This document shows positions 2,866 to 61,421 of a stretch of DNA of 64,000 nucleotides, piece by piece. A program made the translations under genes and the position numbers. The stretch is from the sequence record OQ067376.1. One strand, given 5' to 3'. How positions within the stretch are numbered: the first letter of the stretch is position 1; each line of letters begins with the position of its first letter. The stretch is from Escherichia phage a51. Under the pieces are notes generated by a model. It saw only the letters and a program-made list of their open reading frames with translations, ran no database searches and was not told where the DNA came from.

Positions 2866-3042
2866 TTATGCTTTCTGCTTACCAAAACGAGAAGCATCAT
2901 CTCGAAGAACCGCACGTGCTCGGCGCATGATCTTCTCAACAGTTTGATTGATACGAGAGTTCGACCCACGCTTGTAGCCAGCGCGTTTAGAATCACCAAC
3001 TTTCTTTTCAACTGCTTTCTTTGCTTTAGCTTGTTTTGCCAT
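2866..3042 (-). CDS. small highly basic protein (58 aa, MAKQAKAKKAVEKK...)
   Basis: ORF track 2866..3084; internal ATG at 3042 preferred because the upstream extension lacks a ribosome-binding site. Confidence 0.5.
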   Translation of the reverse strand: MAKQAKAKKAVEKKVGDSKRAGYKRGSNSRINQTVEKIMRRARAVLRDDASRFGKQKA

Positions 3043-3440
3043 TATAAATTCTCTTTTAAATGAAAATGCAGGACTTATTGGCATTGCCTGCGCAAGCCCT
3101 CAAGGGGAACATAGGTTTTTTGATATTTAACGACCAGGATAACCATAAACCCGTCATCATACCTTATAGCTCTTATCTGTTGCACACCGTTAGCTTAAAG
3201 GTTCCGGGTTCGATTTCTCGAGGATAAGATATATACTGATGGATATATAGGCCTTGAGGCGTACTCCCGATTGGCCATCACCTCGGGGTAGCATGCACTT
3301 GCCGCTATAAGAATAACATTCAAGAGGTACACCGTAAAACTGCCGGGGTCTTAAAACTATAATGATTCGCAAATCATTAATCAGACAGTTCGACGGCTCC
3401 TCGTTTTAACTTCACACTAAGGCAGTGACTCTCCAATAAA

Positions 3441-3689
3441 TTACTTCAGTGTTACCACAAAGTGACGAACTGCTTTTCGTGCAGCAGAAGCCAGAGGCTT
3501 AGCATATTTAAGTTCATCTTTTTCCTGAAGCTCAGCAGCTAATGCAGTTTGAGCAGGATTCAGATGTTTGAAATAACGCAGGATTTCAAGAGCTTCGGCT
3601 TCAACATCAATAGATGCGCCATAGTTTTCGTGACCATTATTCCATGCGTTTCGTTGCAGTTCAAGAGCGTGTTGTAATTGTTTAATCAT
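3441..3689 (-). CDS. rIII: rIII lysis-inhibition accessory protein
   Basis: 82 aa ORF, length and position (adjacent to gene 31) match T4 rIII. Confidence 0.8.
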   Translation of the reverse strand: MIKQLQHALELQRNAWNNGHENYGASIDVEAEALEILRYFKHLNPAQTALAAELQEKDELKYAKPLASAARKAVRHFVVTLK

Positions 3690-15256: not shown

Positions 15257-15473
15257 ATTGTTTTTCCGTTAAAACAGTAATATCATAGTAACAATCAGAA
15301 GAAGTTTTAACTGTGGAAATTTTATTATCAAAATACTCACGAGTCATTTTATGAGTATAATATTTTTTGCCATAAATGACAATAGGCTGATTTGGTCCTG
15401 GAACTTCTAACTCGCTTGGGTTAGGAAGTGTAAAAAGAACTACACCAGAAGTATCTTTAAATCGTAAAATCAT
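15210..15473 (-). CDS. hypothetical protein (87 aa)
   Basis: ORF track. Confidence 0.45.
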
Positions 15474-15492
15474 ATATCCTCACAATTAATAA

Positions 15493-37493: not shown

Positions 37494-37652
37494 TTAATCA
37501 TTAGTAGATAACAACACAAATGTTAAATATGCACACATACCCTGAGCTAAAGCTTGCGAAAACACACTGCTGGCATCAATACAGATAGTTAAAACACATG
37601 CTACTATCCAACAAATAAATGAAATAACTCCTAATAATTTTGCAATATTCAT
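37494..37652 (-). CDS. ac: Ac (acridine sensitivity) small membrane protein
   Basis: Own translation, 52 aa hydrophobic (MNIAKLLGVISFICWIVACVL...); between 52 and stp as in T4. Confidence 0.6.
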   Translation of the reverse strand: MNIAKLLGVISFICWIVACVLTICIDASSVFSQALAQGMCAYLTFVLLSTND

Positions 37653-37659
37653 ATTTTCC

Positions 37660-37740
37660 TCACTGGCGTCCGAAGACGCCTTTAGTTTTAAGATTGTTAC
37701 GATAGAACTGCATTACGTGTTCGTTATGGAAATTACTCAT
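37660..37740 (-). CDS. stp: Stp peptide (activator of host anticodon nuclease)
   Basis: Own translation [26 protein letters not shown] (26 aa); start overlaps ndd stop. Confidence 0.7.
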
Positions 37741-40032: not shown

Positions 40033-40294
40033 TTAGACTTTCCTTTTTACCACTAAGATAAGCGTTATATACTTTAAGAGTACCATAATAAATTCGATCA
40101 TTTTCATTTAAAGACTCACGGTCAAGTTCATCGAGCTCCTTTTTATCCATGACTATAACATCATTACAGTAAAGAAACCCAAGTTTTTCGTGACCAAACT
40201 CAAATTTATTACAGTACACAATATTAGCGTGATGATTTCCGTGCAGTTTAATCTCTTTTATGTCGGAATCACCGATATTCATACAATAAATCAT
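39965..40294 (-). CDS. hypothetical protein (109 aa)
   Basis: ORF track. Confidence 0.5.
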   Translation of the reverse strand: MIYCMNIGDSDIKEIKLHGNHHANIVYCNKFEFGHEKLGFLYCNDVIVMDKKELDELDRESLNENDRIYYGTLKVYNAYLSGKKESLNAENESGFTETISDSDIYPIEQ

Positions 40295-40302
40295 AATTTT
40301 TC

Positions 40303-40328
40303 CTTAAAACAAAAGGGCCGAAGCCCTT
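40303..40328 (-). terminator. rho-independent terminator (GGGC-CGAA-GCCC hairpin)
   Basis: aagggccgaagccctt flanked by A/T runs; degenerate copy at 40544-40557. Confidence 0.5.
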
Positions 40329-40332
40329 TATT

Positions 40333-49710: not shown

Positions 49711-49930
49711 CTAAAATATAATCACTGATTGTAACAGTTTTTACTTCACCACAAAAGAATTCTAACGCAATTAAATCTCGTTCAATTTCTTCTAATTGAA
49801 GCATCAACTTACTAGATTCAGTTTTCACATTTTTGCGATTTTTGCTATAAGCTATTTCATAAATTTCGCTTACTTTATCTTGAAGAAGATAAAACTGATC
49901 TTTAGTTATTTCCACGAATAGCTTCCTCAA
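49670..49930 (-). CDS. hypothetical protein (86 aa)
   Basis: ORF track. Confidence 0.45.
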   Translation of the reverse strand: MRKLFVEITKDQFYLLQDKVSEIYEIAYSKNRKNVKTESSKLMLQLEEIERDLIALEFFCGEVKTVTISDYILGEISYLYKAVIND

Positions 49931-49936
49931 ATTTAA

Positions 49937-56098: not shown

Positions 56099-56113
56099 GT
56101 AATTCTCCTTTAT

Positions 56114-56323
56114 TTAAATTACATGACTATTTATAATAAATTCTTGCGGAACGTTAAAATACCCAATTTTAGTTAATATAACAACATCACCGTTAATAAT
56201 TACCGGAGAATAATCGGCTGGAGCATTAAACTTCCAATGAGCTCTAATATTATATCCATCAGAACCAAATGCTCAACTAGCCGGTCTCCCGGCTTTTTGC
56301 CATGCATAAAAATCAAATTTCAT
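56114..56323 (-). pseudogene. small ORF interrupted by an in-frame TGA (16 codons, TGA, then 52 open codons)
   Basis: Own translation MKFDFYAWQKAGRPAS-TGA-AFGSDGYNIRAHWKFNAPADYSPVIINGDVVILTKIGYFNVPQEFIINSHVI; ATGA start overlap; contains the soc late promoter in its 3' end. Confidence 0.3.
56128..56135 (-). promoter_or_regulatory. late promoter TATAAATA for soc
   Basis: plus strand tatttata = TATAAATA on minus, about 30 nt upstream of soc ATG. Confidence 0.65.
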
Positions 56324-61211: not shown

Positions 61212-61353
61212 TGAAAGCTTTAACTAGTGCTTTATTAACTTCAGCATATTGAGTAGTAGCCCATTGAACGTCATCTTTCATCATTGTGATCTCTTTAGTA
61301 AACATGCTTTCATTCTTAAACCACCCCATAAAAACTACCTTTACCAATTCCAT
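61171..61353 (-). CDS. dmd: Dmd-like protein (60 aa; antitoxin against host RnlA/LsoA in T4)
   Basis: 60 aa ORF immediately downstream of gene 41, the T4 61.5/dmd position and length. Confidence 0.55.
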   Translation of the reverse strand: MELVKVVFMGWFKNESMFTKEITMMKDDVQWATTQYAEVNKALVKAFIDDKKVCEVDCRG

Positions 61354-61389
61354 AACAATCTCCTAATTTAACCAACAAGACTACTATAC

Positions 61390-61421
61390 CATAGTCTTGT
61401 CAGCTTGTAAACTAAAATTTT
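61390..61421 (-). promoter_or_regulatory. T4 early-type promoter
   Basis: gtaaac 61416-61421 (plus); ctactatacca -10 region inside a palindrome. Confidence 0.5.

Follow-up and report, generated by a model that had tools for sequence, protein, structure and literature searches.

The RNA antitoxin of the ToxIN abortive-infection system, ToxI, has a published repeat of 36 nt, AGGTGATTTGCTACCTTTAAGTGCAGCTAGAAATTC (PMC8610362), and folds into an H-type pseudoknot in which the stems follow the order 1a-2a-1b-2b, with loops of 3-4 nt and 1-2 nt and a longer third loop (PMC3401426). The system is triggered when the phage stops host transcription: the labile toxI then decays and the toxin is freed (PMC10853763). 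The Pectobacterium phage phiTE evades ToxIN by expressing a pseudo-ToxI, an intergenic sequence close, but not identical, to the antitoxin repeat of the plasmid ToxIN, which is transcribed during infection and suppresses ToxN once expanded (PMC3475682). Here we describe a unit of this kind in a 64,000-nt (64-kb) stretch of Escherichia phage a51 (sequence record OQ067376.1), hereafter the window, which is of Tequatrovirus (T4-like) type. The unit lies in the 398-nt spacer that separates the genes rIII and 30.9 (positions 3043-3440), together with a 156-nt structured RNA, hereafter the core, and several smaller elements. On the comparative evidence given below, this gap, which lies between two cistrons of the minus-strand transcript, consists of RNA cassettes that fold independently of one another. 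The cassettes, best read as exchangeable, differ in presence and order between T4-like genera.

The first 34 nt after the rIII stop codon match a plasmid of Pantoea agglomerans, the sole kind of plasmid match found by BLAST for the gap. The matching sequence is a 38-nt repeat, of which the plasmid has 5.8 tandem copies; a sigma-70 promoter precedes the array and a terminator follows it. The gene immediately downstream carries the annotation type III ToxN/AbiQ toxin and matches the Pfam family ToxN_toxin (PF13958) with an E value of 3e-39. Two units of the same type precede toxN on the E. coli IncF plasmid pB207_F, this toxN being 79.6% identical to that of Pantoea. A hidden Markov model (HMM) built from bacterial units only, to avoid circularity, gave one match in the window, at 3437-3404 (E 3.5e-7), a score that none of 2000 shuffles reached. 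The phage unit, UUGGAGAGUCACUGCCUUAGUGUGAAGUUAAAAC, is identical to the unit of the Pantoea plasmid pBH6cv2_D at 31 of 33 positions, with two 1-nt gaps in one loop, and by inspection it can be read as GG-AGAG-UCAC-UG-CC-UUAGU-GUGA, with loops of 4, 2 and 5 nt. So read, its order of stems and loop lengths would follow the published ToxI pattern (PMC3401426) and that of a genuine ToxI repeat, with stem 1 reduced to 2 bp and one loop 2 nt shorter. Stem 2 covaries across the bacterial units and the phage unit types (UCAC/GUGA, UCGC/GCGA, UUGC/GCAG). It is very likely that this unit derives from ToxI. An antitoxin had been considered in the initial annotation for a 55-codon open reading frame (ORF) of the plus strand; the idea proves relevant through this RNA and not through the ORF.

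The ToxI-like unit is not peculiar to the window. T4 carries it too, with a few substitutions; the D region, which holds it together with the hairpin D2, was found in 693 phage records; and in a Karamvirus phage its 32 nt are 100% identical and again in the rIII/30.9 gap, but after cassette A and not directly after rIII. A different type, cassette F (GGTGATTTGCTACCAAAGTGCAGCTAGAAA), occurs as one unit in the same gap of Jiaodavirus and Marfavirus phages (locus L074 at about 919-949, and loci L003 and L005), and in Klebsiella phages of the JD18 type it adjoins the core directly on the 5' side. Cassette F matches the ToxI repeat of the Pectobacterium atrosepticum type: the Klebsiella-phage gap matched 65 plasmids by BLAST, in 3-10 tandem places each, these being small, mobilizable enterobacterial plasmids from E. 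coli, Salmonella, Klebsiella, Yersinia, Pectobacterium and Serratia on which the repeat stands in tandem. Further ToxI variants are present in the rIII/30.9 gap of other T4-like phages, and the unit types differ between E. coli and Klebsiella phages. No description of ToxI-like units in T4-like phages was found in the literature searched, and on the matches reported here the unit adds the T4 family to the known pseudo-ToxI kind. Both phage unit types are 2 nt shorter than their bacterial counterparts in the same loop, between stems 1b and 2b, which could reflect a shared adaptation or a shared decay. A lone unit was also seen outside phages: the Vibrio alginolyticus plasmid pMBL128 (locus L107, 1503-1540) has a single ToxI-type unit followed by a strong terminator with no toxN annotated alongside, which may be a plasmid-borne lone antitoxin, and similar matches occur on four Vibrio megaplasmids.

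Compared with phiTE, the locus holds one unit where phiTE has 1.5-5.5, the unit is of another ToxI subtype (Pantoea/E. coli IncF), and it is found in T4-like phages, T4 included, among unrelated structured cassettes. Unlike a genuine ToxI locus, it has no tandem array, the HMM finding no second copy in the 64 kb, no adjacent toxN, a tblastn search of the window with the Pantoea ToxN giving nothing below E 5.7, and neither a promoter nor a terminator of its own, since sites resembling either were looked for within 3043-3440 and not found.

The core is a four-way junction whose fold was derived from an alignment of 24 distinct copies with 65 invariant positions. In the structure obtained with RNAalifold (43 pairs), 98.8% of the sequence-by-pair cells hold standard pairs and 21 pairs have changed on both sides; none of 500 column shuffles reached these values, and sliding the pairing partners by 1-3 columns left 26-42% paired. 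The terminal loops of P3 and P4 are complementary over 6-7 nt in all variants, and the four that occur are coordinated: UGAUGG/CCAUCA, CGAUGG/CCAUCG, CUAUGG/CCAUAG and CAAUGA(U)/(G)UCAUUG. At the kissing pair 42:85, 14 sequences have C-G and 8 have U-A; at 43:84, 20 have G-C and 2 have U-A. With this contact included (46 pairs), 98.9% of the cells are paired, again with 21 compensated pairs; it replaces a small distal stem placed in P3 by RNAalifold, which covaries less well. The covariation thus indicates that a 6-bp kissing loop clamps two adjacent arms of the core. The G-U pairs and GNRA loops exist on the minus strand only (for example U-G at columns 79:86 in 21 sequences), and because many G-U pairs fit just that strand the core is assigned to the minus strand, the sense of the genes. 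A structured RNA had been suggested in the initial annotation; the suggestion is strongly supported, conserved secondary structure being present in the 21 compensated pairs, but on the strand opposite to the plus strand that was being read there. Eight helices as well as a tertiary contact have undergone compensatory changes, which show selection on RNA structure, and the core is almost certainly a functional structured RNA of the minus strand. This evidence comes from covariation and not from folding energy, which is not distinctive for the whole gap (z -1.0 and -0.4 on the two strands) and reaches z -1.9 for the core alone.

The unpaired bases of the core, among them an invariant joining segment GCAACA at 3183-3178, are as conserved as the helices, which suggests that a protein or ligand recognises this RNA specifically. 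Purine and lysine riboswitch aptamers also have arms clamped by kissing loops. The core resembles them as a multi-helix junction in which neighbouring arms are held by a loop-loop helix and many bases are invariant; it differs from them in having no Rfam match, recognisable expression platform or known ligand. A docking like that of the hairpin ribozyme and a tRNA-like geometry were both rejected by inspection, as the arms with conserved loops are not neighbours and no core motifs match. The 9 nt ACCUUUAAG in the P7 loop (3191-3202, minus strand) recur in the central loop of P. atrosepticum ToxI; the P7 loop varies between core copies, and the match may be due to chance or be a recombination scar.

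A covariance model of the core gave a single match in the window (181 bits) and matches in 20 of the 40 IMG/VR loci encoding 30.9. In every case the core sits between the two genes and on the same strand as they do, rIII ending 8-134 nt before it and 30.9 following after 115-207 nt. By BLAST it is present in 403 of 50,697 phage records, as one copy per genome and never annotated as RNA, with phages of Klebsiella (158), Escherichia (129), Shigella (27), Enterobacter (27) and Yersinia (18) among the carriers. Over about 140 nt the window's core is 91-96% identical to those of Klebsiella, Enterobacter, Citrobacter and Edwardsiella phages, whereas the rIII proteins of these phages are just 64-77% identical to that of the window, so that across genera the core is the better conserved of the two. 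T4 has this spacer but no core: 153 nt matching window positions 3161-3313 are absent. Measured against T4 the island is thus partly an indel, and of the foreign insert proposed in the initial annotation the presence or absence of a 153-nt element with high identity across genera is borne out, while the element is specific to phages and not bacterial. None of 185,579 species genomes of bacteria and archaea contains an invariant 20-mer of the core, whose viral and metagenomic matches are all T4-like contigs; a looser two-anchor gapped pattern had 64 bacterial matches in the same genomes (about 67 being expected by chance on our own estimate, not a tool's output), none of which scored with the covariance model.

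The Rfam 15 covariance models place the core in no known family: no match overlaps 3043-3440 even at E values up to 10 with lax filters, and no family reaches its gathering score in the whole window. The related loci gave just weak sub-threshold Rfam matches, mostly on terminator-like hairpins, and conserved 13-14-mers of the core were not found in the literature full text searched. On these comparisons the core is an RNA family without known relatives, previously undescribed. GOLLD, ROOL and the phi29 pRNA are phage-associated, highly structured RNAs, noncoding or of unknown function. The core resembles them in being phage-borne and structured and in having complementary loops that could pair between molecules, but at 156 nt it is far smaller, it is not homologous to any of them, and it occurs at just one fixed locus, in enterobacterial T4-like phages; the comparison draws partly on the abstract of a preprint (bioRxiv 10.1101/2024.12.08.627333).

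Two further readings concern the reading frames and motifs of the gap. It might encode a small protein, on the plus strand at 3060-3227, where the 55-codon ORF does exist, or on the minus strand at 3056-3160 or 3190-3372, and a 34-codon minus-strand ORF starts at a conserved AUGAUG. However, no Pfam or PHROG family matches, the plus-strand ORF, which is antisense to the RNA elements, has an altered C-terminus in T4, and in relatives the AUGAUG ORF is thrown out of frame by indels that leave the RNA pairing intact. With reading frames not conserved in related phages, a coding function is very improbable. Likewise, a degenerate tRNA or transfer-messenger RNA (tmRNA) gene might be read from a T-loop-like string resembling GGTTCGATT, which is indeed present on the plus strand at about 3206-3216. 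It is the complement of the GAAA-capped hairpin P6 and of the 5' strand of P7 in the minus-strand RNA, not a T-arm; ARAGORN finds no tRNA or tmRNA gene in the whole window, in agreement with the initial annotation, where the string could not be folded into a cloverleaf, and the tRNA and tmRNA models give no match even with E values up to 10, which leaves this reading with a practically negligible probability.

Read in 40 loci, the gap is a mosaic of short conserved elements that vary in order and presence. The order is D - core - A - B - C in the window, D - A - B - C in T4, E - A - F - core - B - H in the Klebsiella JD18 type, and core - A - B or B - core - A in other phages. The slot occupied by the core (window 3161-3313) holds 2 nt in T4 and an unrelated 44-nt element (containing ATGCGTCAGAAAAGTGTTATCTGTGTAAGTC) in three Tequatrovirus loci (L067, L069 and L073). 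In Jiaodavirus, Karamvirus, Marfavirus and Gaprivervirus phages, too, rIII and 30.9 are separated by 200-400 nt without annotation. PeSL, which Arbiol and colleagues reportedly described in 2010, are mobile cassettes of T4-type phages made of an early promoter and a terminator stem-loop. The gap shares with them short intergenic cassettes that shuffle between T4-type genomes; it was rejected as a PeSL, as neither a sigma-70 early promoter nor a terminator stem-loop was recognised in 3043-3440, and the cassettes here are pseudoknots and junction RNAs. We found no published description of such an array, in which heterologous RNA cassettes shuffle within a single fixed locus. The plasticity of the region, with many indels among close relatives, and the single, slightly degenerate ToxI-like unit would also suit evolutionary debris, that is, relics of recombination with toxIN plasmids, of lost genes or of mobile elements without present function. 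Such an origin explains neither the compensatory changes in eight helices and a tertiary contact, nor a core more conserved than rIII across genera, nor a ToxI-like unit kept in hundreds of phages, and we regard it as quite improbable. The features of the region are collected in Table 1.

Table 1. Elements of the rIII/30.9 gap and its surroundings in the window (positions in window numbering)
Feature	Position	Strand	Description or basis
Cassette H	3774-3718	minus	long GAAA-capped hairpin; gp31/rIII gap, outside 3043-3440
rIII	3441-3689	minus	upstream gene in transcript
ToxI-type unit ('pseudo-ToxI')	3437-3404	minus	single; starts 3 nt after rIII stop codon
Cassette D2	3403-3315	minus	long irregular hairpin; minimum free energy (MFE) fold; closed by GAGG/CCUC, apical AAUGAUU-UGCG-AAUCAUU
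Core RNA	3314-3159	minus	156-nt four-way junction; covariation in 24-copy alignment
Core P1	3311-3304/3170-3163	minus	closing helix; RNAalifold
Core P2	3303-3301/3252-3250	minus	carries long P3 hairpin
Core P3	3292-3283/3270-3259	minus	carried by P2
Kissing-loop strand, P3 terminal loop	3275-3280	minus	UGAUGG; pairs with 3237-3242
Core P4	3249-3243/3236-3230	minus	simple hairpin; RNAalifold
Kissing-loop strand, P4 loop	3237-3242	minus	CCAUCA; pairs with 3275-3280
Core P5	3229-3223/3177-3171	minus	carries P6 and P7
Core P6	3221-3218/3213-3210	minus	GAAA loop (GNRA); RNAalifold
Core P7	3209-3205/3189-3184	minus	large conserved loop; RNAalifold
Cassette A, AUGAUGACGGGUUUAUGGUUAUCCUGGUCGUUAAAUAUCAAAAAACCUAU	3160-3111	minus	H-type pseudoknot; both stems keep pairing across 19 distinct variants
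Cassette B, GUUCCCCUUGAGGGCUUG	3110-3093	minus	small hairpin; stem variants CCUC-UUA-GAGG, CCC-UAU-GGG
Hairpin C	3091-3068	minus	GCAGG...CCUGC; sequence comparison
Weak hairpin before 30.9	3066-3049	minus	UUUUC...GAGAA; pairs 30.9 Shine-Dalgarno AAGAG (3055-3051); AUG at 3042
30.9	2866-3042	minus	58-aa very basic, highly conserved protein; phrog_1427, function unknown
Intrinsic terminator	2862-2841	minus	strong; after 30.9

Besides the unit and the core, several cassettes of the gap keep their pairing while their sequence changes. In cassette A, stem 1 has the form AUG.../...CGU (AUGUGG/CCACGU, AUGUC/GACGU and AUGGCG/UGCCGU among the variants), stem 2 the form ..GGUU/AACC.. (AGUAGUU/AACUACU, UUGGUAG/CUACUAA, CAAGGUU/AAUCUUG), and the third loop is A-rich; relative to the core, the cassette is on the 5' side in some phages and on the 3' side in others. 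Cassette B is found in nearly all versions of the gap, and both B and hairpin C show compensatory variants. Hairpin D2 is kept in T4 and in the Gaprivervirus phage P479, and a shorter form without the apical part occurs in locus L026. In Klebsiella-type phages hairpin C is swapped for cassette H, a longer GGGAGC...GCUCCC hairpin with GAAA loops. Cassette H of the window stands in the gap between gene 31 (gp31) and rIII, and is homologous to the JD18-type hairpin found upstream of 30.9 in Klebsiella phages, with changes in its stems such as GGUGGUC/GACUACC against GGGAGC/GCUCCC and CUGA/UCAG against CCGA/UCGG; the homology is taken from reading the sequences, the nhmmer match (E 8.8e-18) not being independent of a seed alignment that contained the window sequence. 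Because of this hairpin, the cassette family can be said to occupy the neighbouring spacer as well. Every modelled cassette is single-copy within the 64 kb.

These intercistronic elements, all in sense orientation, might be no more than processing or stability signals of a polycistronic early mRNA, such as RNase sites, roadblocks or a self-cleaving ribozyme, which would uncouple the decay of the rIII and 30.9 mRNA and have no function in trans. Hairpin H, before rIII here and before 30.9 elsewhere, behaves like a portable element of untranslated regions, and GGAG motifs, the target of the RegB nuclease in T4, flank the first cassettes of the gap. Simple roadblocks would not need 65 invariant positions or a covarying kissing loop, however, no known ribozyme family of Rfam matches, and it is left unexplained why one cassette nearly equals a bacterial antitoxin; such a role is therefore improbable as an account of the gap.

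The genes around the gap (cd, 31.2, 31.1, 31, rIII, 30.9 and 30.8) all lie on the minus strand, and the gap, described in the initial annotation as an ORF-poor and GC-rich island of about 400 nt, is the whole rIII/30.9 spacer and the longest ORF-free spacer in the window. Its GC fraction is 0.42 (0.464 in the 3161-3313 part) against a window mean of 0.355, a value reached in just 4% of 398-nt windows, and the enrichment is explained by the 156-nt core RNA. Spacers elsewhere had been put at 0-100 nt, which was too strong, since a crude ORF map shows ten more gaps of 150-300 nt. Six minus-strand spacers of 200-300 nt (40033-40332, 15257-15492, 49711-49936, 56099-56319, 37520-37739 and 61212-61411) contain none of the modelled cassettes. 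Another GC-rich segment, 901-1200, belongs to a minus-strand ORF of 154 aa (809-1273) and is not remarkable, and weak Rfam matches to Atu_C8 and Phe_leader, both below gathering score, coincide with the terminator hairpin at 2841-2862.

Downstream of the cassettes, the weak hairpin that precedes 30.9 has a counterpart (UUCUCC...GGAAGA) in other genera, and from its pairing with the Shine-Dalgarno sequence it would sequester the ribosome-binding site of 30.9. The 30.9 protein has 22 positions invariant across genera; PHROG 1427 is its sole family match, no Pfam family and no solved relative having been found. The main alternative to a role in trans is that the core and cassettes A, B and C are a cis-acting 5' leader of 30.9, either a riboswitch or the site of a translational repressor, possibly the basic 30.9 protein itself, acting through control of the hairpin over the ribosome-binding site. 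The fixed place of the core upstream of 30.9 and never elsewhere, the very basic and highly conserved protein, the occurrence of the Shine-Dalgarno hairpin in all genera, and a multi-helix junction that combines a kissing loop with numerous invariant unpaired bases, as is typical of aptamers that bind ligands or proteins, are all in keeping with this proposal. Yet T4 and about half of the phages bearing 30.9 have no core while 30.9 is identical and the proximal leader the same, and one to three unrelated, changing cassettes stand between the core and the ribosome-binding site. Because these intervening cassettes vary, P1 has no alternative partner in an expression platform that would be conserved: the sequence after P1 differs between genera, and no platform competing with the closing helix was recognised. 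Together with the lack of a riboswitch match in Rfam at E up to 10, this makes a cis-acting leader rather unlikely.

We consider instead that the gap is best explained, with even chances, as an array of exchangeable RNA cassettes that includes at least one antitoxin mimic and may supply RNAs against host suicide defences. Only 8-9 nt separate the core from the rIII stop codon in several phages, and because of this proximity and of the absence of promoter-like sites in the gap, the cassettes are probably transcribed by read-through from rIII and not from a promoter of their own. When infection stops host transcription, the labile host ToxI would decay and ToxN would be released; the ToxI-like unit made by the phage would then bind the released toxin and keep it inactive. 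That the unit at 3437-3404 neutralises a ToxN, as in phiTE, has even odds. The gap would then serve phages as a slot for gathering RNA countermeasures that suit the defences of the hosts they infect. For the core, a trans-acting RNA that binds a conserved protein is proposed, with counter-defence as the favoured role, because of its ToxI-like neighbours, its cassette-like gain and loss and its spread across genera; the extreme conservation of its unpaired bases also favours a protein-binding role in trans. That the core acts in counter-defence is a tentative suggestion and somewhat doubtful. It might be an RNA inhibitor of an immune effector that has not been copied from any host RNA. In a bolder reading, likewise somewhat doubtful, the core would be the first of a new class of phage RNAs that act in trans on a conserved protein of host or phage, and the gap a dedicated 'RNA counter-defence island' whose heterologous RNA decoys (several ToxI types, pseudoknots and the core) are exchanged in step with host range.

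Several observations weigh against this interpretation as an array of counter-defence RNAs. The gap holds only one ToxI-like unit, with two 1-nt loop deletions and a first stem down to 2 bp, and its flanks are just partly A-rich, while ToxN binding requires single-stranded tails (PMC8860590); in phiTE, 1.5 repeats left the phage unprotected and escape took 4.5-5.5 (PMC3475682). Cassettes A, D2, E, G, H and others have no meaningful plasmid match. Moreover, the position of the core, always upstream of the highly conserved 30.9 and on the same strand, fits a role in cis equally well. BLAST found no match for the core in 5,426 E. coli genomes or 72,556 plasmids, and because it has no bacterial look-alike the core is not a simple mimic of a host RNA; as a mimic of a retron noncoding RNA or of another antitoxin RNA it was rejected, no similarity being detectable to the bacterial sequences searched.

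No lytic phages have been studied more than T4 and its relatives, which also find wide use in phage therapy, and the spacer considered here is unannotated or labelled 'hypothetical protein' in hundreds of their genomes. The core offers a compact and well-conserved fold with a clear tertiary contact, absent from Rfam, that is tractable for structural and functional work. To our knowledge, searches for anti-defence functions have so far concentrated on proteins, and the shuffling of cassettes at one locus provides a way to search for RNA-based anti-defence. So far we know type III antitoxin RNA mimicry only from the laboratory, where a single Pectobacterium phage escaped by it. Should the ToxI-like units be active, this mimicry would be a widespread and naturally diversified strategy of the Tevenvirinae and would be relevant for the prediction of host range.

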